DNA of 64,000 nucleotides from a bacterium. Lineage in GTDB: Bacteria > UBA10199 > 2-02-FULL-50-16 > JAJFLM01. The translations under genes and the position numbers were made by a program. The notes beneath the pieces are model-generated. The model worked only from the letters and a program-made list of their open reading frames with translations. It was not told the origin of the DNA and ran no database searches. The DNA is taken from positions 1,248,001-1,312,000 of the forward strand of contig CBDCFN010000016.1 of assembly GCA_965216315.1 (NCBI GenBank), given 5' to 3'. This document shows, in pieces, positions 37,678 through 63,790 of this stretch (positions are counted from its first letter, which is position 1; the number at the start of each line of letters is the position of its first letter).

Positions 37678-37744
37678 CTAGAGACGTAGGCAATTGAAGT
37701 ATTCAGCCTAAGCAATTGATTTGAAAGGTGTAATGGGTGTGTTG

Positions 37745-40447: not shown

Positions 40448-43400
40448 GCTCCATCGGTATTAACGTCGCCAAGCTGGGCTGGGCGGGTACTGCTGCTTAC
40501 AAAGCCGGCGCCTTTGCAACGGAGTTTGTGGGCTTCTCTGTATTTGAAGGCTTGAGTCATGCCTATAATAAAATTTCCAAGGATGGGCTGAGCCTTGACG
40601 CCTTAGCCAACTTCGGAAAGGCGTTTACGCCCAAGGCCATGTTGGATCGTGCCGCCTTCATCTTCTTTTTAAAGGTCGGAAACTTCTTGGCGAAGCCGCT
40701 GAGCGAGGCCGTGCAGGGCAAGGTTATGAAGTTTGTCAATGCGCGTTATGCCAAGGAATTTGCGGCGATACGATCCGAGCTCGATTTAGCAACTAAGGAC
40801 ATGGATGCCCTGATGAAGGGGCGGGATAATGCCGCGGCGCTCAAAATAGTGGCCCGTTACGAAAAGGCTTTGTCCCAATTCGGCAAGTTTCTCGAATTAT
40901 CGGGTCAGACAAACGGTTCAGAGGCCAAGAGTCTCAAGTCTTATCTGGAAGGGATTAGTCAGTTGAAGGCGGAACTGAAGGCCCATGAAAAGATATTCGG
41001 CACGGAAAGCATCGCGGACGTCAAAGTATGCCGGGATGGCTTTAGCTATGACATAAGCAAACAAAGTGACTTGGTCTCCGTATTAAAGAGTCTGCCGGGG
41101 TTAAAGATTGAAATCGGCTCCGAAGGGCGCGTTGTGACCCGAAGTCCGGAAGGCAGTGTGTGGGTCTTTCATCCGTCGAGTGTTAAAGGATCGACTCACC
41201 TTACGGTTGCGGCGAAGCGTAATCTTAAGCCGGTAGATCACTCAACCACGAAAACGAAGACGGATCCGATATTTGTTAAGCTCAGCGACCTCCATATGGC
41301 TGGCATCAAATCGCAACATCCGTTGGTCGTTAACGTCATCACCCCGAACCGAAATCACAACCTGGATTATTCCGAGTCATTTAGAGCGAATGTGCTGACT
41401 GGAAAACACGGTACCGATGCCTCGATAGCGCCCGAAATGGCGACTCATGTCTGGGTCGTGGTGCGTGACGCCGTGGCGGCGCGAGAAGTATTGAAACGCG
41501 TGACCGGCAGTGAAACCGGGCAGCTCCCGGAGCGGTTTAAACTGATTGCTCAGGCGGAGTTTGATGCGAATAAGCGAGTAACGGACGCCATCTACGATAC
41601 AATGTACGATGCGCACACCAAGCGACTCAAAGGGACTCCTTGTTCGGGTACCGAACTCGCTTTGATTCGTAACTTTGCCCGACGCTATGAAGCCTGGTTG
41701 GCCGGCAAAACGGCTCACCAACCCAAAACGAGTGCGCTCATTGAGAATCATCCTATTGTCAAGGCCCTGCGAAAGCTTTCGCGTCCTCACGGTCCGCATT
41801 ACTATCGGGATGCGGCTTTTTATGATGCGCTGCCGGCAGGTGGTAAGGTGATCGACGGGGTACCGTACTTTCCACTCATCAAGAATATTAAGGGCCATAA
41901 GTTTCAGCTCGGTTCCGGTCAGACGGTTGAATTCACCGGCCGGGTCTTTGGTCAAGGCAGCGCCTCGACGGTTTATGAGGCGAAGCTGACCAATAGTAAG
42001 GGAGAGGTAACTACCGTCGCCGTTAAAATCCGCGATCATGCAATGGGTGCCGATCCTCTGCACATTGCTAAAGAAATCCGCAATGTTCAGCTGGCAGCAC
42101 GTGAAAAGCTCGGTGGGGTGCAATTTTTTGGTGCTGCCAAAGTGGACGGCCGCTTGGCTATCGTGACGAACGTGACGCCGGGTGTGGATTTCGGACGGGC
42201 GAATCCGCATTGGATTAATGGGACGACAGTCAAGGAGATGAATATCCTGTTTGATAAAATCGAAAGGATCGGGCTTAAGCCTGGTGATTTTCAAGTTACG
42301 ATTGACCGCGACGGTCGGGTTCATCTGATGGACCTTGAAGGCTTGCATGTGACCGGTCTTAAACAGGGGTTCTCGCGCTGGGAGGCGATGGAAGCCCTGT
42401 TGTTGCGCCGTCAAAAGGCGGGCCTCAACACGGATGTTATTATCAGTCATTTAAGTACGGCCCAAAAAATCGCCTTCGCGACGCATTTGGTTCAGAATCG
42501 CGGCTGGAAATCGCCCCAGGTCGCCAAAGTATTCGGCCCGAACATTTTCGATAGTCATTACCGCGGCAAGGTCGATAAAGGATCTGTCGCTGTTCTCTCG
42601 AATAAGGCAAAGGGCGAGATTAAAAGCCCGGAACCGGAACCCGCCTGGATGCGTTCGGCGATTGATTTTCAGTCTTTTGTCGTCAGGACGGGCGCTGATG
42701 TCCGTGGCTTTGTGAAATTCTTCAGACCTGAGAATGATGGCCATTACGAATTCAATAAGACGGTGGATTATATCGCTAAAACGGACCTGAATACACTTAT
42801 GACGGAATTTGGGTGGACGCGGGAGCAGGCAACTCGCATTAAAGAGGATGCATCTACCTTTCGCCCTAACTTGAATCTCGTAACGAAGTGGAACGATCAA
42901 TTTCATAGCAAAAAACAGGATGCAGCAGCCATAAAACGGGACATTTTATCAAGGCTTTCGGAAGCTGACTGCGCACGTCTTAATCGTAAAATGAAGGCGA
43001 TTGTTACACAAGGCAGGCAGGGTAACTCGAAGGTGACAATTCCCATGTTGATTGAAGCCTATATTTCGGCACACCTGAGAGGCTCGTGGTTCAATAAAGC
43101 CGTACTTTCCTATATGGACATCTTAAAGAAGGCCGAGAACACCTTTCTGTCACTACAAGCCGACCTTACAAGCAATGTTGTGGCAGATCGTTCGGTTTCA
43201 TTTGAGCTCAGTTATCCAACTATGAAGCAGGTACTGCAGAAACGTTACATTGATCCGGCAAATCCTGATCAGAGTTTTTCGAATGGATCACCTGAGTCAT
43301 GGGCCGGTCAATTGATTGCGGTAGAATTTTATAGCCCGCATCCGGATAAAAGTAGTGTTTTGTTGCTGGCTAAATTTAAGCAAAATAAAGGCTGGTCCGT

Positions 43401-43587
43401 CCAAGGAATGTCAACCGTTAACGGGCAACGACTTGTGGTTACAATACCACCGAAGCAAGCGCCGGCGGCTATGGCTATGGGCTTCTTCTCGCCGGTCGAT
43501 ATGCAGCCGGGTCAAGCGGTGACAATAACGATTAACATAAGTAAAGTTCCAAGCAAACCAGCCTTGAAAACAGCGCAGGGAGAGTAG
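40438..43587 (+). CDS. Giant orphan carrier protein, C-terminal part with protein-kinase-like domain
   Basis: Frame open from 40438; GRVFGQGSASTVYEA, VAVK, KEIRN, GDFQ...LMDLEG; WKS module. Confidence 0.72.
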   Translation, partial: STLSSIGINVAKLGWAGTAAYKAGAFATEFVGFSVFEGLSHAYNKISKDGLSLDALANFGKAFTPKAMLDRAAFIFFLKVGNFLAKPLSEAVQGKVMKFVNARYAKEFAAIRSELDLATKDMDALMKGRDNAAALKIVARYEKALSQFGKFLELSGQTNGSEAKSLKSYLEGISQLKAELKAHEKIFGTESIADVKVCRDGFSYDISKQSDLVSVLKSLPGLKIEIGSEGRVVTRSPEGSVWVFHPSSVKGSTHLTVAAKRNLKPVDHSTTKTKTDPIFVKLSDLHMAGIKSQHPLVVNVITPNRNHNLDYSESFRANVLTGKHGTDASIAPEMATHVWVVVRDAVAAREVLKRVTGSETGQLPERFKLIAQAEFDANKRVTDAIYDTMYDAHTKRLKGTPCSGTELALIRNFARRYEAWLAGKTAHQPKTSALIENHPIVKALRKLSRPHGPHYYRDAAFYDALPAGGKVIDGVPYFPLIKNIKGHKFQLGSGQTVEFTGRVFGQGSASTVYEAKLTNSKGEVTTVAVKIRDHAMGADPLHIAKEIRNVQLAAREKLGGVQFFGAAKVDGRLAIVTNVTPGVDFGRANPHWINGTTVKEMNILFDKIERIGLKPGDFQVTIDRDGRVHLMDLEGLHVTGLKQGFSRWEAMEALLLRRQKAGLNTDVIISHLSTAQKIAFATHLVQNRGWKSPQVAKVFGPNIFDSHYRGKVDKGSVAVLSNKAKGEIKSPEPEPAWMRSAIDFQSFVVRTGADVRGFVKFFRPENDGHYEFNKTVDYIAKTDLNTLMTEFGWTREQATRIKEDASTFRPNLNLVTKWNDQFHSKKQDAAAIKRDILSRLSEADCARLNRKMKAIVTQGRQGNSKVTIPMLIEAYISAHLRGSWFNKAVLSYMDILKKAENTFLSLQADLTSNVVADRSVSFELSYPTMKQVLQKRYIDPANPDQSFSNGSPESWAGQLIAVEFYSPHPDKSSVLLLAKFKQNKGWSVQGMSTVNGQRLVVTIPPKQAPAAMAMGFFSPVDMQPGQAVTITINISKVPSKPALKTAQGE

Positions 43588-47559: not shown

Positions 47560-49467
47560 ATGAATTTTCAATCACAACTTCGATATATCATTGCAATCGC
47601 TGTTTTCGCTTTAGCGACGGCCCTTGTTCATCACACGGCCTTTGCCGGTCCGGCCGATCTTGATACGGAATTTGCTGACAACGGGGTGATGACGTTGGAT
47701 TTTGGGCTTGAAGAGCAAGCCAGTGTTTTACTTATTGAGGAAGATTTGAACGGCCTGCGTTTTGTCGTGGCCGGTCGTCAGTGCAAGCTCGGTGATTTCG
47801 GGGACTGCGACTTTCTCGTCGCGCGCATCCAACATGATTTCCAAATGGATCAGAGTTTTGCGTCCGATGGCTGGACGACAGCCTCCATGGGCATGTCTAG
47901 TTACGTCAGCGCGGCGGCCTTTACGCCTTCCGGTGAAGTTTTAGTCGTCGGTGACAGAAAGGAAGATGAATTGATCGGGGTGGACCATGACTTCGCGTTG
48001 GCTCAATTCAATGAAACAGGCGAACTCGATACGTCATTCCACAGTGACGGTAAGGTCATGACCGGTTTCGGTGATTATGAAACGCCCTGGGATGTTGCCA
48101 TACAACCTGATGGCAAAATTATTACCATCGGTCGTCAATATCAGACTCCGACGTTTGGCGATACGGATTACGACTTCGCTATAGCGCGATATCATGCGGA
48201 TGGATCCTTAGATAAGAGCTTTGACGATAACGGGAAGCTGGTTAAAGGTTTCGGAAAGGACGATCATGCCTACGCCGTCGCGCTGCAAGTCGACGGGAAA
48301 ATTGTCGTTGCCGGACAAACCGGACGCAACTTTATCGTGGTACGCTTCAATCAAGATGGGCGTTTAGACAAAGGCTTTGGCGATGACGGCAAGGTCGTTG
48401 CCCAATGGGGATCCGGTGAGATCTACGAAGAGGCCAATGATATCGTAATTACTGCGAATGGTCAGATCCTGGTCTCAGGGGTCGCAACGATCGGCGGCAA
48501 CAATGATTTTTTGGTAGCGAGACTCAATGCCGATGGGTCTTTTGATAGTTCGTTTGGCTCAGGCGGTTGGATTGCCGCTGATTTTGACGGCCGGAATGAT
48601 CGCGCGGATACGCTGATGATCGATGATGAAGGGCGTATTCTCTTAACCGGCTGTTCTCAGCAAAAGTTTGCCGTGGCCCGTTTTTTTCAAAATGGCATGC
48701 CGGATAAATCTTTTGGCGACGGTGGCCAAGCCTTGAATGAGGACCAAGACTGTGGCGCAGCCGCCCTGGGACCCGGTGGCCGTATCTTTGTCGCGCACTC
48801 TGTAGACAATGGAAATAACTCAGATGTGCAACTCGTCGCCTTTAAAGGCAGCTCAGAGGAGAATGGCTTTTCCTTGGATTTGACTGATTTAGCCGTTGAT
48901 GCCCAGGAGCTCGTCCCGGTCTACAAGGCGGACCTGCGGCTTGAAATAAGCGATGCGCAGGATCCGGTCGAAAGTGGCTCCGAGCTGGGTTATGCGATTC
49001 GTATCAGCAATCTGGGGCCCAATCGTGCGGACAATATCGTCTTGTCAAATGAATTGCCGGCCGGTGTCAGCCTGAAAGAGATCGATTTCCCTATAGGTTC
49101 TTGTACAACGACAAATCCCATCGTCTGCAATTTTAGTGAATTAGCTGCTGGAGTAACGATGACGGGAACGATGCTCATCGAAGTAGGGGGAGCCGGTTTT
49201 ATCGAAACGACGATGACAATCACGAGTGATGTCATCGATCCTGAGCTGAACAACAATCAGGCTACCGAAATGACGGCGATAACACTGCCACCGTTGTCAC
49301 CTGAATCCACACCGCCGGAAACGACTGTCCCCACGGAACCGACGGTCACGACCCCGGAAGCCCCTGCGAATAGTGACGCGGCCGGTAATGTGGACGGACC
49401 GAGCTTCGCGGGCGAGAATACCAGTGCCCAACGTGCCGGCGGAGGATGCTCGCTAGTCCGGAGATAG
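47560..49467 (+). CDS. Secreted delta-60-repeat beta-propeller protein with DUF11 domain and GGGCSL C-terminal tag
   Basis: Signal peptide; repeats of QPDGKI..G / RYN.DG.LD.SF..DG; ADLRLEISD..DP..SG..L.Y.I..SNLGP; Pro/Thr linker. Confidence 0.85.
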   Translation: MNFQSQLRYIIAIAVFALATALVHHTAFAGPADLDTEFADNGVMTLDFGLEEQASVLLIEEDLNGLRFVVAGRQCKLGDFGDCDFLVARIQHDFQMDQSFASDGWTTASMGMSSYVSAAAFTPSGEVLVVGDRKEDELIGVDHDFALAQFNETGELDTSFHSDGKVMTGFGDYETPWDVAIQPDGKIITIGRQYQTPTFGDTDYDFAIARYHADGSLDKSFDDNGKLVKGFGKDDHAYAVALQVDGKIVVAGQTGRNFIVVRFNQDGRLDKGFGDDGKVVAQWGSGEIYEEANDIVITANGQILVSGVATIGGNNDFLVARLNADGSFDSSFGSGGWIAADFDGRNDRADTLMIDDEGRILLTGCSQQKFAVARFFQNGMPDKSFGDGGQALNEDQDCGAAALGPGGRIFVAHSVDNGNNSDVQLVAFKGSSEENGFSLDLTDLAVDAQELVPVYKADLRLEISDAQDPVESGSELGYAIRISNLGPNRADNIVLSNELPAGVSLKEIDFPIGSCTTTNPIVCNFSELAAGVTMTGTMLIEVGGAGFIETTMTITSDVIDPELNNNQATEMTAITLPPLSPESTPPETTVPTEPTVTTPEAPANSDAAGNVDGPSFAGENTSAQRAGGGCSLVRR

Positions 49468-49686: not shown

Positions 49687-49781
49687 TGTATCGAAATGGT
49701 ACATATTGGGGTCTCGTTTCTGACGGATTAGCAATATAACTTATTGATATTATTTAATTATTACTTGGCACGGCACTTGCT
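49687..49781 (+). promoter_or_regulatory. Sigma54 promoter with palindromic enhancer and IHF site, copy 2
   Basis: TGTATCGAAATGGTACA (49687); IHF match TATCAATAAGTTA on the minus strand at 49737-49749; TGGCACGGCACTTGCT (49766). Confidence 0.82.
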
Positions 49782-49823: not shown

Positions 49824-52800
49824 ATGGGCAAAGGTAGAAAAGTTGAAGTCAGAACGACTGGTCGCGGAACGTATGGAACCAGCGGTTCGGGCAAGGCACC
49901 TGCCAAGAAGTATAAGGGCGGGTCGAAAATCAAGGTGGGTGGAACTGCTGGAAAAGTCTCAACCGAATCGACTGGTAATAAGAAAGACACGAGTTCCACA
50001 ACAGAGACAACGACGTCCAGAGAGACGGAAGTCAAGATTGAAGACGTCGATAATTATTCAGTCGCAACGGCCTCAACGACTGAGTACACAAACCCCCATA
50101 CGCCAACGGCTAAGAGAAAATCTACCAAGAAACCTGTTACTGTCTATGACAAAAAACCACCAGTAGAGAGTAAAGAGACGAAAAAAGATGAAACAAAAGA
50201 AGATAAGGGTGAAGTCAAAATTGCTGATGCGGTTATATCCGCAGGAGTAAAGGTTTACGATGCCCCGGATATCGCAGCATCCTATAAGAAAGGGAAAGAG
50301 GCCTTTGGTAATATTCCGATTCTTAGTCAGCTTGCCGGACTCGGCTATGGACTCGTTACCCTGGTTAAAAATTACGGCATGGTCGGTAATCGTATTCACA
50401 AAATAGAAGCGCCCAAAATTCCCGAATACAAAGGCGAAGTCAAAGACTGGATGAAGGAAAGCTTCTCCGCCGGTGATGTCATCATCGTTGAAGGTAAGTG
50501 GGCTGAAGTTATCAAAATCGATTCAGTAAAGCTCGAGTATCGCTTCGTCAATGAGACTCAGACACGTACCACTGACGTCACGGATGCCTTGATCCGGCAA
50601 AATGCGGCCGAATTGCCATTGGATGCAATCCGGCCGACAGTAAACGGACTCTCCGGACCACGTCTTGATAAATCGATGCACCGCATCGATCAATACATCA
50701 CAGTCGCGGTCGTCGACGGGAAATATTACTGCGTCGACGGTCATCATCGCCTGCTCTATATGTCAGCCGCCAAGATGCCCAAGGTACGTGTTCGTTACGT
50801 CCATATGACCAAGGCCGAATTAAAGAAGCGCTTAAAGAAGGGCCATGGCACGCGCTACGAAGTTCCTGAAAACCTCGGTGGACTCAAGGTTGATCCGAGT
50901 CGAACCGATGTACCGACCCGAGTGGAGAGAACACGATCCGAACCCACCCCAGATACACGATCCGTTGAAGGCCACGCCGATTATCATGGCGTGGAGAAAA
51001 CACGCAATGAGCGCGAACTCAATAGCTTTGTCGAATATTATACCGGCAATGAAATGAAAAGCCTGACGGATCTTGCTAAGAGTTCTAATCCGGTCATTAG
51101 CAAGGCCGCCACCCAGTTCAGAGGCCGTGTCCTCTTAATCCAACAATGGGTTCGTGCCTACCGGAAACTCGAAGGTATGAATCCCTCGGACCGTCACAAG
51201 GCCGAGCAGGCCCTTATCACGGAAATAAGAAATAGTATGAGCGTACTGGAGAAAGTCGATCCTGTTTTTTGTCAAAATCTATCCATCGCGCTCAAGTTAG
51301 ATCATCAAGTGAGTGCGACTGGTTCTCATCAAAAGGGGGAGCGTGAGCTAATAGATAATTTCTATACCACGATGAATGGAGTCGTTAAAAACGAGCTCAA
51401 AAACTCGCCCTATAATATGATGGAACAACGCTACGGCGAAGTGATGTCGGCGGAGAAGACCCGCCTGAATTCCGTGCGACAGATCCTGAATGTCTTGGTG
51501 TTACATTCGGGCAGTTCGATTCATTACAAAGACCGCGAGGGCAACTTTACGGACATGGCGCCGTATATGAAGAGAAAGAGCGAGGCGGATGCCTCCACAG
51601 CCCAGGTTAATTCCAGTTCCAATAGTACAGGGGTGAAAACAAAAGTGGACCCTGATGCGACCCATGTCGAGCCGTCACGTCAACAGGGAACGCCCTCAGG
51701 TCCCGTCGTGATTGATTACAACCTTGTCCCGCGTGGCAAGGTTTACGGTCTTGATATAACGACTCCGCAGACGGTGTTGGGGTGGACGCGGGTCCAGGTT
51801 GCCGTGCGCAATGAACTGAGCCTCGGCCAACAACTGGAGCTCTATCGTTATCTCTCCGTCGAGGCAGGGTGGAAGAGCGATCAGCTCTCCAAGATGTTCG
51901 GTGCAAAGTGGATGCAGATGCATACAGCAAAGTCATCCGGTTCAAAAGATTCAACGACGAATCCAGTCACATCGACCAAGGCAGATAAGGAATTGGTCGA
52001 TAAGTTCATCGACAGCACCCATCAACCCTACTATCTTGACGTTGTTGATCGTTACTTTACTCCCGACAAAGAACCGGTGACTAAGTTAGCAAGCGAAATG
52101 GGGATACCTAAATTCGCGTTGATCTTGAAATCTACGACTAATAATCCCGCAGCCCGTGAGAACTTTGATGTGCTGCTCCAAAAAGCGACAAGTACTAAGG
52201 CCGAGGCGGCTCATGTAAGAGATTTCCTCAAAACGGCCTCTGTAGACCAGATTTTACTCCTTGTAACCAATACTTCACGTACCGCTGGACGAAGTGGCGT
52301 TGTTTCCTATCTCAGTAATCATGGTTATCTCGACATCTTGAGCGGCGATCCAGCCTCACATGTGTCACGCATTGAAGGGATTAAAGATGTGCCGACACGC
52401 GATCTCTTATTGGCACTTTGCGCCCATCGTGAGTTTCAGCTTCGCAAGGATCATCCCTATAGACAGAACGCCGAAGGCCTCGATCTGTTGCATCGCTTTG
52501 GTATCGATCCCCATGAACATGCGACTTTTCCTTGGAACAGTAAGGATACGATGAATCGTGCCTCCCTTTATTTCCGCGTCAAGGCAGAGAAACGTAACAT
52601 CAATACCATTTTTGCCAAGGCGGCACCGGGCAAAGAAGGCGCCGCCAAGGCACTTGTCGACAAGATGTGGAATCTGATCATGACCCAGGATGTTAAGGAT
52701 ACAAAACTGCCTTTTACGCCGCACGGCTGGCAGCACACCCTCGACGTCGTCAAGCTCCAGCGTGACATCTACAATAGCTCACCGGCCTTGAGAGATGCGC

Positions 52801-53663
52801 TCATCAAGCAATTCGGCTCGGAGGCCAAGGCACTTGCTGTCATGGACGCCGTCGCACTGATGCATGACGTCGGCTACGGTATGCTCAAACCCGGTGAATC
52901 GAAAGGGAAGCACGCCATCCACAGCGGTGAGGCCTTCAAGAGCCAGCTAGCGAAAGATTTCAAAGAGCTCTACGACCTGACAGATAAACAGGTTGAGGAC
53001 ATATTCCTGGCGATCCAGCGCCATGGCGCCGACAAATATGGGAAGCCAGGCTATATGGCGGCCAGTGTCCAAAATAATCCACTCCTCATGATTATTCGTT
53101 TAGCTGATAATCTTGATTCCAGTATCAAAAGACTCCGTTCAGCACAGACGCATCCGCTCTTTCTTGAGGCAATCAAGACAATGTACGCACTTAAGGCGAA
53201 TGGCCAATTTACGAGTGGAGATAAGGCGACTCAGAAGAGCATGTTAGACAAAATCCGCAGAGATTATGCCTTGAAATTCGGTAGTGAGATGGCGCCCAAT
53301 GACGCGAAGTTAGCCAACGAGCTGCTGCGGGAAATGAATCAAGAGAGTTGGCCTCATTTTAAAGGCGCGGAGAGAGTCACTGATGTCAAATTGTCCGTAG
53401 AAAATGGCCAACTCGTCGTGGAATTCCGCATCTTAGGGAGCCATAAAGAAGGAACCGTAACGGAAAAAGACAATTTGCAAGTGGAAGGATCCCAATATCA
53501 ACTCTGGCGTGCCTACGAATCAGCTAAATCGCTCGACTATAACGGCAAACCCATCATCTTTCGCTACAAGGAGATGTCGGAAGCGGATCACCATAATCTC
53601 GAGCCGGCGGCCGTCATTGGTGACAATAAGGTATATCATCCGGACAAGAAGCAGGCTAATTAA
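49824..53663 (+). CDS. Modular orphan protein: shared leader + ParB/Srx-like domain + WKS module + HD domain
   Basis: YYCVDGHHRL; HGWQHT...LMHDVGY...HAIHS...RHG...RLADNLD. Confidence 0.8.
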   Translation: MGKGRKVEVRTTGRGTYGTSGSGKAPAKKYKGGSKIKVGGTAGKVSTESTGNKKDTSSTTETTTSRETEVKIEDVDNYSVATASTTEYTNPHTPTAKRKSTKKPVTVYDKKPPVESKETKKDETKEDKGEVKIADAVISAGVKVYDAPDIAASYKKGKEAFGNIPILSQLAGLGYGLVTLVKNYGMVGNRIHKIEAPKIPEYKGEVKDWMKESFSAGDVIIVEGKWAEVIKIDSVKLEYRFVNETQTRTTDVTDALIRQNAAELPLDAIRPTVNGLSGPRLDKSMHRIDQYITVAVVDGKYYCVDGHHRLLYMSAAKMPKVRVRYVHMTKAELKKRLKKGHGTRYEVPENLGGLKVDPSRTDVPTRVERTRSEPTPDTRSVEGHADYHGVEKTRNERELNSFVEYYTGNEMKSLTDLAKSSNPVISKAATQFRGRVLLIQQWVRAYRKLEGMNPSDRHKAEQALITEIRNSMSVLEKVDPVFCQNLSIALKLDHQVSATGSHQKGERELIDNFYTTMNGVVKNELKNSPYNMMEQRYGEVMSAEKTRLNSVRQILNVLVLHSGSSIHYKDREGNFTDMAPYMKRKSEADASTAQVNSSSNSTGVKTKVDPDATHVEPSRQQGTPSGPVVIDYNLVPRGKVYGLDITTPQTVLGWTRVQVAVRNELSLGQQLELYRYLSVEAGWKSDQLSKMFGAKWMQMHTAKSSGSKDSTTNPVTSTKADKELVDKFIDSTHQPYYLDVVDRYFTPDKEPVTKLASEMGIPKFALILKSTTNNPAARENFDVLLQKATSTKAEAAHVRDFLKTASVDQILLLVTNTSRTAGRSGVVSYLSNHGYLDILSGDPASHVSRIEGIKDVPTRDLLLALCAHREFQLRKDHPYRQNAEGLDLLHRFGIDPHEHATFPWNSKDTMNRASLYFRVKAEKRNINTIFAKAAPGKEGAAKALVDKMWNLIMTQDVKDTKLPFTPHGWQHTLDVVKLQRDIYNSSPALRDALIKQFGSEAKALAVMDAVALMHDVGYGMLKPGESKGKHAIHSGEAFKSQLAKDFKELYDLTDKQVEDIFLAIQRHGADKYGKPGYMAASVQNNPLLMIIRLADNLDSSIKRLRSAQTHPLFLEAIKTMYALKANGQFTSGDKATQKSMLDKIRRDYALKFGSEMAPNDAKLANELLREMNQESWPHFKGAERVTDVKLSVENGQLVVEFRILGSHKEGTVTEKDNLQVEGSQYQLWRAYESAKSLDYNGKPIIFRYKEMSEADHHNLEPAAVIGDNKVYHPDKKQAN

Positions 53664-55682
53664 ATGGGCAAGCACGTCAAGAGAACGAGGCGCACTGGTG
53701 GTGCCCATCAAACTACCACAACGAAAGCACCTGCGAAGAAGTTTAAGGGGGCAAGTGGAGGCGTTTCGAGTAGCTCATCCGTTGGGAAAACGACTAAGTC
53801 GATGCAGAGTTCAGCAGCACGCAAAAGTGAAGACAAGATTGTTGAGCACAAGATCGATGATATCGACGTCTACACGGTAGCTACCCGCCCAGATGAGTCG
53901 GTTTCGAAATCCAGTTCAATTAGGACAGAGAAAAAATCAGTCCAAAAAGGAGTGACTGTCTATCAAAAAAAGGCTCCAGCTCAAATTAATAGCCCAGGCA
54001 ACAACATTAAAAGATCGATGAAGAAAGTTAGAGAGCTTGTCGCCTCTATCCTGGGGTTTTCCATCTTCTTTACCCCCGATGTATCCGAAGCGACAGTACG
54101 TGGAAGTGAAATAGCCTCTCAGACACCTATGATCGGTTATCTTTTCGGGGTGATCTTGGCGACGGCCACGATGTTGTATAAACCACGAACAACAAATCAA
54201 CCAAAGCGTCAACCCAAAGACTTTGTCGTCATAGACATCAGCAACATCACTGAAAAGGCGCAGGCAAAAACAAAATTGAATGAGGGATTAATCGGTAGAA
54301 AAAATATCCGGCTTGTCGAGAACTCTATTGAGACTCAGGCGAAGGATCGCTTCATGGCAGTTCTAAAGGCCGTCATGACACATAATTACAAAGGGGATAT
54401 TGAGGTCATTGATTCAGCCGGCAAGCTGCTGTGGAAAAAAAATGGAAATACGATTAGCGGACAGCTGACCGGTCGTTGGTTGAAGGAATATTATCTGAAT
54501 AACTCAGGTTTCAAGGCCGGCAATCGCTTCTTTAGCGTGCGCAACGATCTTGCCGCCATGAAGACGAGCCGCAAAATTGAGTTTGAGGAGGCCCCTAATC
54601 TGCTGAGTGAGATCGCTGTCATGGATCTCGCCACGGCAACGACCCCCCGCGGGAGCAAGAATCCCGTAATTCCGACTCAGAACTTGGTTAATTGGATCAC
54701 TCAAGGAACAGGACTCGCTAGGACGACACATGGCAATGCACGAAGACGCAAATACCAGAATGTAATGAAAGAACACGGTCCCTACGCAGAGGGCTTTAAG
54801 GTCGATGGGAGTGATCATTGGACCAAAGCCTTCCAGGCCATGCAGACATGGCTCAATCGCGATAGTGCGAATATTAAGAAACTGAAACAGACGTTTGAGT
54901 ATCTACAGCGTGACTCAGTCGGATCGTTGAGCTATGAACATAATGCCTTTCATCTCGCCAAATTGTTCGCGGATGGCAATACAAAGGATATCGATGCCGG
55001 CTTGAATCGTCTCAATCAATTTTATGCCAAGACGAACGGCCAATTTCAAATCAGCGGTGCGACCTTTAATGTTTTCTTCGAGAGTAAGGAGGGCTCAGCG
55101 GCCGAGCGACGTAGCCTCGATTCGATTCGGCTTGCGGCCCAGGACTATATAGCGGAGGGCTATCATTTTAAGATTGAAGTGATTCCGACATCAAAGAATT
55201 TTTCGGCACCAACGCCTGACTATCGCGTTGAAGCCTCGAAAAACGGAACCAGGCAGACTTTCATCATTGAGGTGAAGAGTTTTGCCAATCTGCTGGGATC
55301 AGGTGAAAAAGCCGCTGATTATCTAACATTCCTGCGCAGTGGCTACAATGTCGGAAAGATTAAAAACGGGGCACCGCCCATCGCTCAGCAGATCGGGCAT
55401 GGTCTCCATCAACTCCATGATTATAGCGGGAAAAATTCAAATGACATGCGCATCTTAGAGATCCATGTCGGTAAGAAGCCCAATACTGAAGTCCTTGGAC
55501 ACCTTCAGACCTTCATTAATGAGAACCCTCACTCGATCATCAGAATCGTCTATCCGGAAACAAAAAAAGCTAATGGCATCATCAAGACAGTCCGTACCAG
55601 GATCAATCTCATTCCAGCGAAGAACTCTAAATACGATGATTACGGCAAAAAATCCGACCCGTTTGCCGCCTTGGATTACTAG
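53664..55682 (+). CDS. Modular orphan protein: shared leader + hydrophobic segment + C-terminal PD-(D/E)xK nuclease-like domain
   Basis: AAERRS...PTPDYRV...IIEVKS; starts immediately after the upstream stop. Confidence 0.72.
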   Translation: MGKHVKRTRRTGGAHQTTTTKAPAKKFKGASGGVSSSSSVGKTTKSMQSSAARKSEDKIVEHKIDDIDVYTVATRPDESVSKSSSIRTEKKSVQKGVTVYQKKAPAQINSPGNNIKRSMKKVRELVASILGFSIFFTPDVSEATVRGSEIASQTPMIGYLFGVILATATMLYKPRTTNQPKRQPKDFVVIDISNITEKAQAKTKLNEGLIGRKNIRLVENSIETQAKDRFMAVLKAVMTHNYKGDIEVIDSAGKLLWKKNGNTISGQLTGRWLKEYYLNNSGFKAGNRFFSVRNDLAAMKTSRKIEFEEAPNLLSEIAVMDLATATTPRGSKNPVIPTQNLVNWITQGTGLARTTHGNARRRKYQNVMKEHGPYAEGFKVDGSDHWTKAFQAMQTWLNRDSANIKKLKQTFEYLQRDSVGSLSYEHNAFHLAKLFADGNTKDIDAGLNRLNQFYAKTNGQFQISGATFNVFFESKEGSAAERRSLDSIRLAAQDYIAEGYHFKIEVIPTSKNFSAPTPDYRVEASKNGTRQTFIIEVKSFANLLGSGEKAADYLTFLRSGYNVGKIKNGAPPIAQQIGHGLHQLHDYSGKNSNDMRILEIHVGKKPNTEVLGHLQTFINENPHSIIRIVYPETKKANGIIKTVRTRINLIPAKNSKYDDYGKKSDPFAALDY

Positions 55683-55688
55683 AATAAC

Positions 55689-55783
55689 TGTATCGAAACG
55701 ATACATATTGGGGGCTCTTCGTGGTCAGAATATCTTATAACTAGTTGTAATTATTAGATTTAGATCGTGGCACAGGGCTTGCA
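55689..55783 (+). promoter_or_regulatory. Sigma54 promoter with palindromic enhancer, copy 3
   Basis: TGTATCGAAACGATACA (55689) and TGGCACAGGGCTTGCA (55768). Confidence 0.82.
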
Positions 55784-55798
55784 ATGTAGTTTACTGTC

Positions 55799-58700
55799 AT
55801 GGGAGAAACAGCCAAAGTTACAGGCTCTTCAGCTGCGGTCGATCAGCAACAAGGCGTTGACACTGAAAAGGGCTCGGATAGCGACAAGACGAATAAGTCT
55901 CAAGTTAAGATAAACGGTCCGGTTATCGATGCCTTTACGCAGGCCGGTACCACTGCGATGTCATTGGTCCATGGTGGTTTCATGCTGCCCTTTGCTGTCA
56001 GTCAGTACCATGGCAAGGTTTATCAAGGTCAAATAGCCGAAGCGGAGAAGGAAGAGAAGTCTATTGAAGATTATGCCAAGAAGGCAGAGGCCGCAACCGA
56101 TCCCAAGACTAAAAATGACCTCTATTCGCGTGTCCTCTATTTCGGACGGCGACGCCTGACCAAACCTTTTTCCAGCGATGATGCCAAACTGAAATGGCGA
56201 TTAAAAGTTGCCAACTGGGCGATAGAGAACCAGGACTACCATATAGCCTACGATCTCTTAGTAACGACACACGCCGGTGTTGCGGGATCGATGAGCGGAT
56301 CACCAATTCTTTATAATATCAAGGATCCTGCACATGAGCAGGCCGTCATCAAACTCTTTTCCATTACCACCGACCAATGGATTACTGCAGCCGATGCCAA
56401 GCATCAATTAGGAGACCTGGATGCGTCCGGTTCCATTATTCAAAAGGCCTTTAAGGTAAATGTCTGGAAGACGAAGCGCATCAAAGCTGGCGTAAACAAT
56501 GGTCGACTTGGTGTTTACTTTCAGTTTGGGAAAGAGGAACAGGATAACAGAGCTCTGTTGATGAAGAAAAAAGACGCATATAAACAATCAACGGATCAGA
56601 TTTTGGCAAAATATAATAAAATCGATCAGGAAAAATTGGTCGGCTTACTGATAGAATCGGGAGCCGCAATGCTGGGATTTCTCGACATTGGAAACGTAAT
56701 TAGTGGAAAAGCAATGTCTGATGTCAGTAAGAATGTCGATGGCATTAAAGAATTATTTAAAGATCACGGTTTAAATAAGGCGTTAGTCGAAGACATTAAG
56801 AAACGCGAAGCTGAATTGGCGACAATCAAGCCAACGACGGATGCGAATCGCAGAAGAATTGCCGCGCTCAGTAAGCAAATAGAGCACAATAGACAGGCTA
56901 TTGAGAAGATCAAAATCCTCGATCAACTCCGCAAAGAGATCAAGCATTTAGATATAGATGATATGATCGATAAGACGCAGGTAAAGATTGTCACATCAGC
57001 GCTTAACTCCTTACCCTTAGCTTATTTCGAGGGTAATGATGAGTATAATGCAATCATCAACTATGCGTATGCGGAAAAGCAGCAAGGGAAGGTAATCGAC
57101 TGGATCCTCAGTAAGCATCCTCAGGGTTTTCGCCAGGCCCTTCACTACAATATCGAAACCGATGACGTCTGTTATGACCGCAAATTAGGCAAAGAGCTTG
57201 ATTCATGTGTTGATTACTATGAGATGGATCCTAAGGATGCTCCCGATCTTCCATTTAGCAAGGTTTTTCGAAAGAGCAATGATGCCGATATCGTACGTCT
57301 TATGAAGTATATCGACAAGGTAAAAACCTATGATCTCATACCCGGCGGAAAGATTGGGATGCAGGGAAACTTTGATAATAGTCGTCATATTTATGTCCAC
57401 ACGATAAGTGATCTAAGAGCCCTAACAAAGTCTATTAATAAAACCTTTGGTGTCGATGAACTTCCCACAGGGATACAGAAAGGCATTCTGGAGGTTGAAA
57501 AGCTGGAAAATGACGAAAACAAGGAAGACGACAGCCATCAGCGCGTTCTCGCTCTGAATGAGAGCCTGGGGCGGATTGACGATTATGCTAAGCGCATGAA
57601 GGGGCTCGAGAATCTGTTGGCGACAACGAAAAACGCCGCGACGCCGAACGATATTCCTTCATCGGCTGATCTGCGGGCCTTTGTCGATGAGTCCTTAAAG
57701 GATACCGATGCCTTGATCAAAAGCCTCGAGGCAAGAAAGACCTACTTAGAAAATATCATCATCACTAAAGATAATCGTTGGCTCGGTCAGCCACCGGATG
57801 CGGAATGGAAGGCGATCAAGTGGCGCAAAAAAGAATTTAAAGAAGTTAAGGAAGATCTGCAGAAACTCTACTCGGCACGAACGGGACTCAAGACCTTTCA
57901 AGCTAATTACGTCCATGACAATAAACATATGAAGGTCAATGCCGATACGATCGAGACCTTTAAATTGATGCACTTTGACGGCATCCTGCTAGCCGAAGCC
58001 CGTCACGCCCGGCGTCTCATGGAAGGGGAATGCGTAATGGTTGACGGGATTCCTATCTTGAAGAAAAAAGGCGATCCCGCCGGAGCGCGCGATGTCAGCC
58101 CAATTCATAGTGAGATGACCTTGGATATGAATCCTTACGAATATTTTATTAACTCGAAACGTGACCTGACGGGTCAATCGAAGACACCGAAGCCGGTAAC
58201 GATTACTTCTGAGCACATTGCGGCCTATCATAAGCGCTTCAGTGAACTGCGGCAGCGCTTGAGTAAGGTCGCACTGGCCCGGAGCGTCGATGCCAAGATC
58301 ATCGTATTGAAGAAGCAGGCCGAGACTGTTAACGATAACGATTGGTTTTCATTGAAAACGGTTGAAAACTTCGGACGCTTTCTGGCCGATTCGACGTTTT
58401 GGGACGTCGACCCGAAGGCGTATGACGACAAAGACCCTTTCAATTTCATGGCGGCACGCTACATGCAGGTCCGAAACGAAATCAACCAGGCCCATAATAA
58501 TAACGATGCGGATAAGTTCTTCTCGGCCCAGGTCCATTTTCTCCAGTTGGAGCACGCCAGCGATCACAGTTTCCTTGATAAAGTCTTTAAAGAAGCGGAG
58601 TTCGCATACAATCTCAAAGTCGGTGTCACTGTTGTAACCCTCAGTGCCTTTACGGCGGGCATCGCGGATAAGTTGATGGCGCCGATGCTCGTCCGTCTCG

Positions 58701-60001
58701 CAATGACAGGACGCTACGGGATGGCCGCAGCGCGCATCGCTCAGCCCTTGATCTGGAACGGGACCTTTGTCGCCGGCAATCGCATCTATGGCGGAGCCTT
58801 TCAAGACGGCTGGAGCGGGGCCTGGAAGGGGGCCAAGAGCATCGTCCAAGATCCGCTCGGCTTCGGCATCGAGACGATCAAGATGGCCCTGATGATGAAA
58901 TTTATTGGCGGAACCGGCCGCGCCTCGCACAAACTGTTTAATAAGCTCGTCGGCAATAAGGCCCAAGCCTATTTACAAAAGATGAAGATCCCCATCGTCG
59001 AGAATGGCGTTGTTCGCATGCCGACCGGCTGGCAAATCGCGAAAGAAATGTTCGCCTACGGGACCGTGCGCATCGCGCGGCCCACCTGGATGTTTGGCGC
59101 CGAGGTTGGGGGCTTCCAGCTCTGGGAGGCCCTCGATAAGACCGGGCTCCAGCTCTGGCATACCGGCTCCATAGATCCCGTCGGCAATTTGCAGCACGCC
59201 TTCGAATGGAAGCAAATTAAGCACGGTGGCCAATTCATAATCGGGCTTCGTTTAGGTCACGTCCTCTCTCTACCGGTTACCAAGCCGATCAATAACGCGA
59301 CGGAAAAATGGATCTATAAAAAATTTGAAACGGAATTTGCGGAGTATAACAAGTTTACCGAAGAGACCATAGCCGCTATTCGTCGCTTTGATCCGGAGAA
59401 AGGCGATCACGAGGCCTTTGTAAAAGATATGCGCAGCCGCCTCAAAAAACATCGTAAGTTTCTCGACCGTTTCCCTAAGGATATCACTTATGTCAATGAA
59501 CATAAGTTCTTTAATGAGCAGTTGGGCAAGCAACTCGACTATTTTGAGACAACTTATAAGGCAACGGCTCCCATCTTTGCTAAGGGAAATTCCTATGGGG
59601 TCAGTGCGATGGTCGTCAGTGATAAATACAAGACGAAGATGGACTTAGAACTCGAAGTGGCCACCGGAATTAACTACACGTTCTCTAATCATCGTGGCCC
59701 TGAGCTCGTGACCGCCTTGCATGAGTCACCCTCCGTGAATTCCCTCCGTGTCTTCGATAACGGGGTCATTCAGGCAGAAATCACGCATCCGCTGACCCAA
59801 CAAACGCATTCCGTCGTGTTCATACCTAAAGGTGCCGTAAATGGGAGTCACGTGACCAAGATGCAGGCGACGGCTGCGAGCCCGAAACCGAAGCCCAAAC
59901 CCGATCTCAAGGTGATTCAAGGCGGCGGCGAGACGACCACGACACAGACGAAACCAACGCCAAAGACGACGACGGCACAGCCGAAAAAAATCGCCAAGTA
60001 A
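55799..60001 (+). CDS. Giant orphan helical carrier protein with hydrophobic region (paralog of 37745-43587)
   Basis: 1400 aa; coiled coils; shares three ordered similarity blocks with the 37745/40438 product. Confidence 0.75.
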   Translation: MGETAKVTGSSAAVDQQQGVDTEKGSDSDKTNKSQVKINGPVIDAFTQAGTTAMSLVHGGFMLPFAVSQYHGKVYQGQIAEAEKEEKSIEDYAKKAEAATDPKTKNDLYSRVLYFGRRRLTKPFSSDDAKLKWRLKVANWAIENQDYHIAYDLLVTTHAGVAGSMSGSPILYNIKDPAHEQAVIKLFSITTDQWITAADAKHQLGDLDASGSIIQKAFKVNVWKTKRIKAGVNNGRLGVYFQFGKEEQDNRALLMKKKDAYKQSTDQILAKYNKIDQEKLVGLLIESGAAMLGFLDIGNVISGKAMSDVSKNVDGIKELFKDHGLNKALVEDIKKREAELATIKPTTDANRRRIAALSKQIEHNRQAIEKIKILDQLRKEIKHLDIDDMIDKTQVKIVTSALNSLPLAYFEGNDEYNAIINYAYAEKQQGKVIDWILSKHPQGFRQALHYNIETDDVCYDRKLGKELDSCVDYYEMDPKDAPDLPFSKVFRKSNDADIVRLMKYIDKVKTYDLIPGGKIGMQGNFDNSRHIYVHTISDLRALTKSINKTFGVDELPTGIQKGILEVEKLENDENKEDDSHQRVLALNESLGRIDDYAKRMKGLENLLATTKNAATPNDIPSSADLRAFVDESLKDTDALIKSLEARKTYLENIIITKDNRWLGQPPDAEWKAIKWRKKEFKEVKEDLQKLYSARTGLKTFQANYVHDNKHMKVNADTIETFKLMHFDGILLAEARHARRLMEGECVMVDGIPILKKKGDPAGARDVSPIHSEMTLDMNPYEYFINSKRDLTGQSKTPKPVTITSEHIAAYHKRFSELRQRLSKVALARSVDAKIIVLKKQAETVNDNDWFSLKTVENFGRFLADSTFWDVDPKAYDDKDPFNFMAARYMQVRNEINQAHNNNDADKFFSAQVHFLQLEHASDHSFLDKVFKEAEFAYNLKVGVTVVTLSAFTAGIADKLMAPMLVRLAMTGRYGMAAARIAQPLIWNGTFVAGNRIYGGAFQDGWSGAWKGAKSIVQDPLGFGIETIKMALMMKFIGGTGRASHKLFNKLVGNKAQAYLQKMKIPIVENGVVRMPTGWQIAKEMFAYGTVRIARPTWMFGAEVGGFQLWEALDKTGLQLWHTGSIDPVGNLQHAFEWKQIKHGGQFIIGLRLGHVLSLPVTKPINNATEKWIYKKFETEFAEYNKFTEETIAAIRRFDPEKGDHEAFVKDMRSRLKKHRKFLDRFPKDITYVNEHKFFNEQLGKQLDYFETTYKATAPIFAKGNSYGVSAMVVSDKYKTKMDLELEVATGINYTFSNHRGPELVTALHESPSVNSLRVFDNGVIQAEITHPLTQQTHSVVFIPKGAVNGSHVTKMQATAASPKPKPKPDLKVIQGGGETTTTQTKPTPKTTTAQPKKIAK

Positions 60002-60017
60002 AAACGGATCAATCGAT

Positions 60018-62066
60018 ATGGGTGGAAATGCCGCAGTAAAAGGAAACCGCAAAGGCTATGGAGCCAGGCCTACTCGTGCAAACAGTACGACCTCGGCTAA
60101 AAAATTTAAAGGGAGTCCTGTAAAGGTTAAAATCAATACGACAACAACAACCAGCACAAGTGCCCACACAAAGCAGACACCGAATAAAACGTCCGCTTCA
60201 ACGACTGAAGTGAAGATTACGGATCTTGATGTGTACTCAATTGCAACGGAAAGCACACCGGCTACATATCAACGTACGGTCGCGCCAGCGCCCAAACCTA
60301 AGCCTCAACAAGTATCAGCACCGGTAACGGTCCGCCTCGATATGTCAGTTCGGGCACTGAACTTGATTCAAAACGCCAGTCAAATAAATCCGTTTTTTTC
60401 AACTTTGGCTGACTTCGTACGCAAATCTCCTGGGAAATCCCTCGCTAACATGACAAAGTCCGAACGCACAGCAATCCCCGGGAGCGCCTGGAAACAGTTT
60501 TCTATCAACATTAACAAGCTCTATGCGCTTGGTGTACATCATAATGACGTCAAAAGATCTAATATCACTTGGGATGGCCATACACTCCGCTTGATAAATT
60601 TCCAGAAGGCCGAATTAGGGGTTCGTTCTATCGACGATTTACGACGCGCCCAGAAAATCCAGCACTATGATATAGAAAACCCTAAAGCCAACCCGCTGGA
60701 AAGCAAGATGGCCATCAAGGATCGTCCGACAGCTCCTGTCTTTGGATTGGAGCAGGGTAAGATCTATCTGGAATTTCCTAGCGATACGGCCAAGCTAATC
60801 CTTAATGCGAAAGGCGGCATGGTTCCAATAACTCAAAATGGAAATAACTATAAAATCGAGAATAAAAGTAGCGAAGACATCTATCTTTTTCGCGGCGGTG
60901 ATTCCAAGCAATTTGTCATCATTGGCAAAGGACAAAGTCGTGTTGCAACCCATAATGACGTACTCCAAATCGGCCAGGGGAGCTATACCCTGAGAAAAAC
61001 GACCGATCACGCTGGAGCAGTTACGGGCCAAATAGGAAAACGAACGGTCACGATTGATTATTTACCCTTGCCGCCTAAACAGCAGGCCCCGGGCAATCAT
61101 CAGGCTCCCATCTCGGGTCAGGTAAGCGCCAAACCTCGCCAAGGACCCACAGTACCGAAAACAGGCGACGCTAAGGTCATCGTGGCAAATCAAACAACAC
61201 CTTATCAACGTCATCGATTGTCTCCGCAGCAGCAAACAGTTGTTGATCAGTGGCTCCGACAACATAGCTTAAAACTTGCACAACTGACGCGTGAGCAGCA
61301 AATTAAGCTCGTCCAGCATTTAGTCCTGTACCATAATTGGAAAAGTACGGATATCGCAGCGCTGACCGGTCACGCTGAGCTACAAGTTCTTTACAATAAC
61401 TATGTCATTCAACCTGCCAGCATTGTGCGGCGAATACTTGGATGGCTGTTAGGGACCAGTTCCGGTGGTAATGCAGGGGCTCACTTGTCGGGAACGCGAA
61501 AAGTCGAACCATGGATGTACTACAATATCATCGATGCGCCCCGTAATGCCAGGCTGTGGATCGATGGCAAGTGGGTCGACGTTCAAGCTGTTTACGGCAA
61601 TCAGGTGACTTATTCCTATATTGATAGGAGTGTCGTTCCCAAGCGACGGCTTACCCGCACAACCCCGCTGACCAAAAAGATGTTGCTCGCGACATTTGCC
61701 GAGTTGCCTATCAGCCAGATTCATCCGACTGAAAATGGGCTCTCTCCGATACGATATGCTGCGGCTCATAAATATACGGATATTCCGATATTGGTTTATC
61801 GACATTTCAAGTCAGATGGCTCGGTTGAGTATTACGCTCTGGATGGACACCATCGCCTTGCAGTACTGGCAAAATTGGGGCGAAAGAGTGTTCGCGTGCG
61901 CTTTGCGCCTTCAGATATTTCACGTATACAGGATTTTCTGAATAAACCCCGCAATCCGGCAATGCCGGTTCCGCGTCATGCCAAGGACTTAGAAATCTGG
62001 CAGGCACGCTATGATGATTACCGAGGGGGTCCCGGCGGAGAACCGATGACATCAGTCAATCCCTAA
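60018..62066 (+). CDS. Modular orphan protein: shared leader + degenerate kinase C-lobe + FHA-like + WKS module + ParB/Srx-like domain
   Basis: HNDVKRSN...INFQKA; YKIENKSS...NDVLQIG; YYALDGHHRL. Confidence 0.75.
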   Translation: MGGNAAVKGNRKGYGARPTRANSTTSAKKFKGSPVKVKINTTTTTSTSAHTKQTPNKTSASTTEVKITDLDVYSIATESTPATYQRTVAPAPKPKPQQVSAPVTVRLDMSVRALNLIQNASQINPFFSTLADFVRKSPGKSLANMTKSERTAIPGSAWKQFSININKLYALGVHHNDVKRSNITWDGHTLRLINFQKAELGVRSIDDLRRAQKIQHYDIENPKANPLESKMAIKDRPTAPVFGLEQGKIYLEFPSDTAKLILNAKGGMVPITQNGNNYKIENKSSEDIYLFRGGDSKQFVIIGKGQSRVATHNDVLQIGQGSYTLRKTTDHAGAVTGQIGKRTVTIDYLPLPPKQQAPGNHQAPISGQVSAKPRQGPTVPKTGDAKVIVANQTTPYQRHRLSPQQQTVVDQWLRQHSLKLAQLTREQQIKLVQHLVLYHNWKSTDIAALTGHAELQVLYNNYVIQPASIVRRILGWLLGTSSGGNAGAHLSGTRKVEPWMYYNIIDAPRNARLWIDGKWVDVQAVYGNQVTYSYIDRSVVPKRRLTRTTPLTKKMLLATFAELPISQIHPTENGLSPIRYAAAHKYTDIPILVYRHFKSDGSVEYYALDGHHRLAVLAKLGRKSVRVRFAPSDISRIQDFLNKPRNPAMPVPRHAKDLEIWQARYDDYRGGPGGEPMTSVNP

Positions 62067-63688: not shown

Positions 63689-63790
63689 TGTATACATATT
63701 CATTTGTATACAGAATTAATAAATATAAGATCTATTGAATTCAATAAGTTATATATAATTATTTTAACATTTTTTGGCACATTAGTTGCA
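63689..63790 (+). promoter_or_regulatory. Sigma54 promoter with a different upstream palindrome
   Basis: TGTATACA-N8-TGTATACA (63689-63712), AT-rich spacer, TGGCACATTAGTTGCA (63775). Confidence 0.75.

Follow-up and report, generated by a model that had tools for sequence, protein, structure and literature searches.

We analyzed a 64,000-nucleotide window of genomic DNA (contig CBDCFN010000016.1, positions 1,248,001 to 1,312,000) from a bacterium of the uncultured phylum UBA10199, in which three large proteins, here called P1, P2, and P4, begin with the same Lys-, Ser-, and Thr-rich leader of about 110 residues bearing three motifs. The leader is conserved as a peptide and was recovered from these three genes only. 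Encoded among them is P3, a leaderless protein that belongs to an undescribed family of long helical proteins, termed trunks, in which a long C-terminal tail is usually present but is missing from P3. We propose, as a tentative reading that is plausible and somewhat short of probable, that the leader is a locus-private docking tag that binds P3, the predicted carrier of P1, P2, and P4 through a type III apparatus.

The sequence-only reading of this DNA had reported an MG start and three motifs in three proteins, and all of these are present in P1, P2, and P4. In that order of proteins, AKK[YF]KG (motif A) lies at residues 27, 24, and 27, E.KI.D.D.Y[ST][VI]AT (motif B) at residues 69, 61, and 64, and VTV (motif C) at about residues 105, 97, and 103. 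When the 18,054 stop-to-stop open reading frames (ORFs) of the genome (2.96 Mb, 98% complete; G000 hereafter) were scanned by regular expression, motifs A and B both matched P1, P2, and P4 and no other ORF. Local-alignment scores over residues 1–110 are 131 for P1/P2, 127 for P1/P4, and 92 for P2/P4; no score as high arose in 2000 full shuffles or in 2000 shuffles within 10-residue windows, and in a comparison with 2606 proteins the highest score outside the three did not exceed 61. The MG start by itself is common, being found in 87 of the 1235 proteins of at least 300 residues.

Conservation of the leader acts at the protein level. Of the 19 invariant leader residues (Met excluded), 17 show a codon difference in at least one copy, and the similarity between the leader DNAs amounts to a single 26-base match between P1 and P2. 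Because the codons vary at these positions and DNA similarity is nearly lost, the peptide, not the DNA, is what is kept, and on the codon variation we rejected the possibility that the leader is an RNA or DNA element.

The composition of the leader is unusual. Its Ser plus Thr content ranks 1, 8, and 2 (P1, P2, and P4, respectively) among the same 1235 proteins, its hydrophobic content falls within the lowest five of that set, and residues 1–35 include 8–10 Lys or Arg residues and at most one acidic residue. No 19-residue window with a mean hydropathy above 1.3 occurs in the first 110 residues, which agrees with the earlier statement that a Sec signal is absent. The leader had also been called undescribed, and this description held: no Pfam family matches it (up to an E value of 3, only mucin-like entries appear, the best at 1.4), and scans of whole P1, P2, and P4 gave no NCBIfam match in the leader region. 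The mucin-like entries were likewise all that Pfam returned at an E value of 3 with respect to the RIX, MIX, and FIX markers, although the presence of these marker models in the library is unconfirmed. A single-sequence AlphaFold model of P2, with a predicted local distance difference test (pLDDT) score of 35.6, is too poor to report on disorder or fold. Alignment had suggested a degenerate leader in P3, and this candidate was ruled out by shuffling, wherein the P3 scores proved to be at chance (reached by 518, 356, and 1904 of 2000 shuffles), and by the rank of 128 that P3 obtains with a motif-B profile.

Searches for further copies covered proteins, genome and metagenome contigs, phylum genomes, and the ESM Atlas, with viral contigs outside their scope. 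A leader profile compared with 1.84 billion representative proteins returned the three leaders themselves plus one repeat protein (E value of 2.7e-4), which was rejected as a relative on inspection, and a word search of 5.8 billion proteins with residues 1–120 of P2 returned P2 alone. The leader pattern matched 140 times in genome contigs and 388 times in metagenome contigs, and 0 matches in either set were confirmed. The sole match in 60 relatives (E value of 0.018) contains stops, the leader is present in 1 of 93 phylum genomes (its own), and it was not found in the ESM Atlas. Judged from these sequence comparisons, the leader is a putative tag private to this locus and carried by three genes only. 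The sequence-only reading had inferred the signature of polymorphic effectors; the searches do not support a widespread signature domain. It had also advised cataloguing C-terminal diversity with a hidden Markov model of the leader, which is impossible because the leader has no relatives beyond P1, P2, and P4. Note that the genus is represented by G000 alone in the genomes searched, and close relatives are therefore lacking from the comparison.

Beyond the leader, P1, P2, and P4 are assembled from enzyme-like modules that are also present in giant proteins (Table 1). The earlier claim that their downstream domains differ holds in part. P1 and P2 remain homologous to about residues 181 and 171, respectively, through a hydrophobic segment (E value of 2e-16), and P1 residues 222–362 and P4 residues 515–666 share a module (E value of 1.6e-14) composed of an SH3-like part, a label assigned by eye, and a ParB/Srx-like part with a DGHHR motif; P1 and P4 also have a weak helical stretch in common. 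A profile of the P1/P2 hydrophobic segment found none among the neighbors of other trunks. Residues 725–1255 of P1 are 53–57% identical to three leaderless giant proteins of the same genome, and the kinase-like piece of P4 (residues 134–241), which has Asn at a position where its relatives have Asp, is shared with two other proteins of the genome. No relatives were found for P2 residues 110–672, the FHA-like region of P4 was labeled by eye and has no database match, and sequence searches of the PDB with P1 and P4 returned nothing useful. Whole P1, P2, and P4 have no Pfam match; because the Pfam scores of the modules are all below cut-off, the enzyme labels are predictions. The DGHHR motif is given for ParB toxin domains in a published survey (PMC3482391). 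The HD module of P1 also marks a second family of giant mosaic proteins with a different N-terminal body that is common among themselves (G000:C16:1804947-1821701, C9:1520-4993, C15:10075-12060, and C15:476778-484268).

We defined the trunk family by residues 800–1362 of P3, and the resulting profile matches 32 of 93 phylum genomes. An AlphaFold model of this core made from 53 sequences (pLDDT of 84, predicted template modeling score of 0.61) shows long helices that lead into a small terminal alpha/beta domain, and two stretches are hydrophobic across the family. The core has no Pfam match, and a PDB sequence search returned nothing useful. Comparison of the fold gave 0 matches at an E value of 0.001 with Foldseek, a best Z of 9.2 over 68 residues with VIA, which corresponds to a generic helical bundle, and a best Atlas score of 0.90 for an unnamed entry, with PT-TG at 0.85 serving as a lead only. 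A longer-protein search with the trunk, which is insensitive, returned P3 alone.

Trunk proteins occur with and without a tail. Among 53 trunk ORFs with complete 3′ ends, 37 carry tails of 320–4057 residues and 16 end no more than 54 residues past the trunk, with nothing between; once 5 apparently broken or split ORFs and 1 fragment at a contig edge are set aside, 10 of the 16 look intact. P3 has no C-terminal tail. The gene after the trunk is co-oriented in all nine intact tail-less cases that have a neighbor in view, versus 13 of 32 tailed ones. Moreover, modules of P1 and P4 are found fused behind trunks, namely the ParB module in G001:C277 and the kinase-like module in G010:C4:40931 and in the gene that starts at window position 63786. 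P3 is a tail-less member of a family in which other members carry such modules as tails, which fits the proposed carrier role. Two further trunk genes lie in or at the edge of the window. The gene from 63786 onward (G000:C16:1311786-1317149) is preceded by a sigma-54 site and encodes a 1787-residue trunk with a fused tail that includes the kinase-like module related to that of P4. The other appears as two ORFs (37721-40447 and 40528-43587, plus strand), the profile running from the 3′ part of one into the 5′ part of the next; near 40445 the reading frame changes, through either a real break or an assembly error.

A comparable layout recurs elsewhere in the phylum. In 6 of the 47 regions in which a trunk was called (50 were fetched), pairs of neighboring genes showed significant N-terminal similarity, and three of these regions were dropped: the G013 pair and two full-length paralogue pairs are ATPases or whole-gene duplicates. 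In G010:C4, four genes that lack a trunk come after a pair of tail-less trunks and have in common a different leader of about 75 residues (6 of 6 pairs, z of 7–22), and the remainders of these proteins are unrelated (z of at most 2). One ends in a kinase plus AvrPphF-ORF-2 and one in HEAT repeats, and the C-termini of the others are unassigned. This Gly-, Glu-, and Arg-rich leader is again private (1 of 93 genomes, four copies, one locus), and the trunk locus adjoins sctU (G010:C4:19589-20743). A third kind of array stands beside a tail-less trunk in genus g27, where the similarity is confined to the N-terminus in G027 (three pairs, z of 5–13.5, remainder unrelated) and is mixed in G041. The cargo of the arrays includes kinase, PP2C-like, and FHA-like domains. 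Between the g27 leader arrays and the tail-less trunk lies a conserved helical protein of about 155 residues (G041:C115:29655-30122; G027:C1:20426-20890; two copies in G053, at C174:8212 and 12406), which is a possible adaptor. An sctU gene is also found beside a giant protein with the ParB module (G051:C94:21685-22833).

Positions 49824 to 62066 of the window are filled by the four co-oriented ORFs, whose products have 1279 (P1), 672 (P2), 1400 (P3), and 682 (P4) residues. The P1 stop abuts the P2 start codon, the P2–P3 gap of 116 bases holds a promoter, and the P3–P4 gap is 16 bases. The P4 gene ends at 62066, past the end at 60340 given in the sequence-only reading, and is followed by a convergent gene for a 462-residue protein. 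Inspection of the gaps revealed no small immunity genes between or after the cargo genes P1, P2, and P4; because P2 abuts P1 and only 16 bases separate P3 from P4, there is no space for them. A 22.7-kb public contig covers 44101-60950 with two letter differences and 0 gaps, although all four holders of this match come from one study that possibly used the source sample, so it checks the assembly only. The sigma-54 consensus found upstream of P1 and P3 occurs at 108 sites in the G000 genome, many directly 5′ of orphan or secreted-looking genes (e.g., at window position 47085).

Table 1. Coordinates (in the window) of the features of the P1–P4 locus; enzyme-like labels are predictions.
Feature	Position	Strand	Description
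IHF-like site	49737..49749	+	upstream of the P1 promoter; presumed from the consensus
Sigma-54 -24/-12 consensus	49766..49780	+	TGGCAC-N5-TTGC; 58 bases upstream of P1
P1	49824..53663	+	1279 aa: leader, hydrophobic segment, SH3-like + ParB-like module, orphan middle, HD-hydrolase module
P1 leader, aa 1-115	49824..50168	+	motif A 49902-49919, motif B 50028-50069, motif C 50133-50147
P1 hydrophobic segment, aa 127-186	50202..50381	+	common to P2 only
P1 SH3-like + ParB/Srx-like module	50481..50909	+	DGHHR; Pfam ParBc_2 E 0.0034, below cut-off
P1 aa 725-1255, HD domain at end	51996..53588	+	Pfam HD E 2.5e-4, 21.7 bits vs cut-off 22
P2	53664..55682	+	672 aa: leader, hydrophobic segment, orphan middle, PD-(D/E)xK-like C-terminus
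P2 leader, aa 1-108	53664..53987	+	motif A 53733-53750, motif B 53844-53885, motif C 53949-53963
P2 predicted restriction-endonuclease-like domain	55026..55643	+	PDY..IIEVKS; Pfam REase_AHJR-like E 0.11 only; low-confidence AlphaFold model
Sigma-54 consensus	55768..55782	+	31 bases upstream of P3
P3	55799..60001	+	1400 aa; tail-less trunk protein, proposed carrier, without leader
P3 TPR-like segment, aa 95-230	56081..56488	+	helical, label by eye; mostly in tail-less trunks
P3 trunk core, aa 800-1362	58196..59884	+	long helices, two family-conserved hydrophobic stretches, small alpha/beta C-terminal domain
P4	60018..62066	+	682 aa: leader, kinase-like C-lobe, FHA-like region, helical stretch, SH3-like + ParB-like module
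P4 leader, aa 1-112	60018..60353	+	motif A 60096-60113, motif B 60207-60248, motif C 60321-60335
P4 kinase-like fragment	60414..60740	+	HNDVKRSN..INF; Pkinase E 0.008, below cut-off
P4 SH3-like + ParB-like module	61554..62015	+	DGHHR; shared with P1

The genome encodes a non-flagellar type III export apparatus. A type III cluster contains SctV, D-like, J, L, N, O, P, Q, R, S, and T proteins, a sigma factor, and one TPR protein, and SctU is encoded elsewhere in the genome. None of the 24 cluster proteins scanned matches a secretin, needle, or translocon family, although several small genes of the cluster have no assignment; the one strong secretin of the genome adjoins its one strong T2SSE-family ATPase, a pair that we read as GspE/GspD. 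Searches of the 98%-complete genome, in which the positive controls matched, returned no flagellin, no VirB4 (type IV secretion), no sheath family, and neither of the type VI secretion system markers VipB and Phage_GPD (VgrG-type). The absence of sheath and Phage_GPD families applies equally to extracellular contractile injection systems (eCIS), for which the tube search lacked a matching control. A YbjN-type chaperone was not found (control matched), and a search for a CesT chaperone gave no match in the genome or in the positive control. Two sigma-54-linked orphan proteins encoded 3′ of the cluster (G000:C16:362938-366067) share a C-terminal end (SDEGKEL.KSL.AELQQEE.LMRF) and have no Pfam match.

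The docking model builds on what was observed: a leader confined to three genes, a trunk without a tail, the sharing of modules, the recurrence of the layout, and the presence of an export apparatus. In most trunk proteins, the fused C-terminal tail would be the cargo. At the P1–P4 locus, the cargo would be split onto separate genes and re-attached noncovalently through the leader, much as cargo effectors are held on adaptors in type VI systems. The leader would bind P3, encoded among the cargo genes and acting as carrier, and P3 together with the probable enzyme cargoes (ParB-like, HD, kinase-like, and nuclease-like) would pass through the type III apparatus on the way to a target cell. What the model predicts is the binding itself, the route of export, the activity of the enzymes, and the target.

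Several results weigh against this model. P1/P2 and P3/P4 have separate promoters. SctU is present in 90 of 93 phylum genomes, so co-occurrence with type III carries no weight and demonstrates availability rather than use. Most giant proteins that hold an HD or ParB module show no trunk match. A segment like P3 95–230, found in 6 of 10 intact tail-less trunks versus 1 of 37 tailed ones, counts in favor of the model, but the profile was built from the same sequences in which it was counted, and kin are not independent. Three of the fetched regions lost their trunk, as longest-ORF gene calling errs in GC-rich genomes. Arrays are known from three independent families only (G000, G010, and genus g27), and in G041 most of the significant pairs are related past the leader as well. 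Four or five tail-less trunks have one unrelated neighbor or a weak pair: a single neighbor accompanies those of G001:C270, G082:C4, and G082:C65, and the pair beside the G010:C3 trunk is weak (z of 2.5). The three kinds of leader are unrelated in sequence (hhalign probability of 0.2%, best cross z of 3.5), so no shared recognition chemistry is visible, and a motif common to all three was rejected on the same values. Finally, G000 has a second array that shares N-termini only (C15:337-350 kb) without a trunk-profile match, and 23 of 5930 neighboring pairs in this genome share N-termini alone; therefore, such arrays can arise without a trunk.

The strongest alternative, unlikely in our judgment and nevertheless a serious contender, holds that a type III export signal of the usual kind, together with a region for chaperone binding, makes up the leader and was copied locally onto three effectors by terminal reassortment, with P3 another effector of the same island. 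A Ser/Thr-rich, disordered-type N-terminus with a conserved block at residues 60–80 fits the layout of a signal followed by a chaperone-binding domain of 50–100 residues (PMC10025392), and terminal reassortment is reported to be frequent among type III effectors (PMC7406222). The export apparatus in the genome and the trunk-free array on C15 are also consistent with such a signal. However, no YbjN-type chaperone was found and no CesT was recovered, with the control results stated above, and this alternative leaves unexplained why arrays stand at tail-less trunks and, in the regions fetched, at no locus with tailed trunks only. A better candidate for a general signal is, moreover, the uncharged Ser/Thr/Leu/Ala-rich N-terminus with a LAAS-like end that occurs on many orphan and enzyme genes of G000 (window positions 35034, 36032 (RtcB), 43675, and 62063). 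This N-terminus, which is distinct from the leader, is a candidate general export signal by its sequence; 142 of 1826 proteins pass a crude filter for it that also catches Sec signals.

The leader might instead be a relic of tandem duplication of one promoter-proximal gene start, followed by shuffling of C-terminal modules and having no role in targeting. The leader is confined to a stretch of 12 kb that holds all of its three copies, the further modules shared by P1/P2 and P1/P4 make these proteins paralogues anyway, and the MG start is commonplace. Yet three spaced motifs are kept in a low-complexity region whose DNA similarity is nearly gone, which points to selection on the peptide, and P4 retains the leader while dropping the hydrophobic segment that follows it in P1 and P2; we consider a mere relic improbable. 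Very improbable is a leader that acts in the target cell or the producer cytoplasm rather than in export (for example, as a scaffold-binding motif or as a basic tail directed to membranes, nucleic acids, or organelles), since the G010 leader at the same genomic position is unrelated and of a different composition and the N-myristoylation consensus fits P1 and P2 poorly (Lys at position 6), even though the basic residues 1–35, the kinase, PP2C-like, and FHA-like cargo domains that could equally be signaling parts, and the lack of small immunity genes between cargo genes are compatible with it.

A broader claim extends the docking model to the phylum: the trunk family would be an undescribed effector-delivery protein of this whole uncultured group, working with needle-less type III systems in fused and split forms, each split locus having its own private leader read by the neighboring carrier. 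At present, we hold this extension to be distinctly unlikely.

A shared leader on shuffled effectors is a known principle, and several described systems invite comparison. The nearest described parallel to the docking model is the RIX adaptor (PMC10435454), in which a platform at the C-terminus is predicted to hold the N-terminal part of an effector encoded by the following gene. Both have a basic N-terminal domain ahead of diverse C-termini, and in both some carriers have a fused toxic tail whereas others lack one and adjoin a cargo effector with predicted N-terminal docking. In contrast to RIX, no type VI markers were found in G000, the locus lacks immunity genes, the leader is locus-private rather than family-wide, and the carrier, a helical protein of 1400 residues, is unrelated. 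Type III effectors resemble P1, P2, and P4 in that a low-complexity region of about 100 residues with a conserved block precedes otherwise different effectors, with an apparatus in the genome (PMC10025392 and PMC7406222); here, however, export is predicted, no class I chaperone was found (the CesT control gave no match), no secretin was found in the cluster, and a tail-less giant protein is the neighbor.

The needleless T3SS* of Myxococcus xanthus resembles the G000 cluster in having a sorting platform and the export genes of the inner membrane but no secretin found among them, and it is needed for prey lysis; its effectors and delivery route are described as unresolved (PMC12075869). It works with Tad/Kil pili, whereas in G000 only one strong T2SSE-family ATPase, beside the one strong secretin, was found. 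Polymorphic toxin systems share with our locus DGHHR ParB domains and nuclease-like and other enzyme modules that are shuffled at C-termini (PMC3482391). P1, P2, and P4 display the classical conserved N-terminal region with variable C-termini, with partial overlap between the modules of P1 and P4. They differ in that the classical immunity gene after each toxin gene is absent at P1–P4, several modules are present per protein and not only at the C-terminus, and the trafficking domain is outside Pfam. N-terminal leaders also load diverse payloads into PVC/Afp particles, which are eCIS (PMC9054023 and PMC11495950), but no sheath or VgrG-type genes were found in this 98%-complete genome.

Other features of G000 were noted in passing. 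Tandem orphan genes at G000:C15:337289-360405 have only their N-terminus in common (ALN.L..TLAASA...NP.D...MP), with no trunk match nearby, and tandem genes at G000:C16:2177434-2185613, which start MGC.LYGAS.L.G..GLCRANPGTAYG, have N-termini far more alike than the rest. Positions 47560-49467 of the window (plus strand) encode a secreted-looking protein with DUF5122 beta-propeller and DUF11 domains and a C-terminal end, GGGCSLVRR, which we take to be a myxobacterial-type sorting tail.

Neither the libraries nor the open-access texts that were searched contained the leader of P1, P2, and P4, the trunk family, or the split arrangement of carrier and cargo. The P1–P4 locus provides concrete candidates, outside Myxococcus, for the effectors and the delivery of needle-less type III systems, and the short leaders of G000 and G010 allow direct tests of specificity by reporter fusion and by mix-and-match between loci. 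If the leader were only a duplicated export signal, the locus would be a modest new case of terminal reassortment, and the trunk family would still be undescribed in the libraries searched. If the reading of a private carrier code were true, effectors would be loaded by a code of a new kind, which might account for the entry of enzymes into target cells from a type III system that has no needle.

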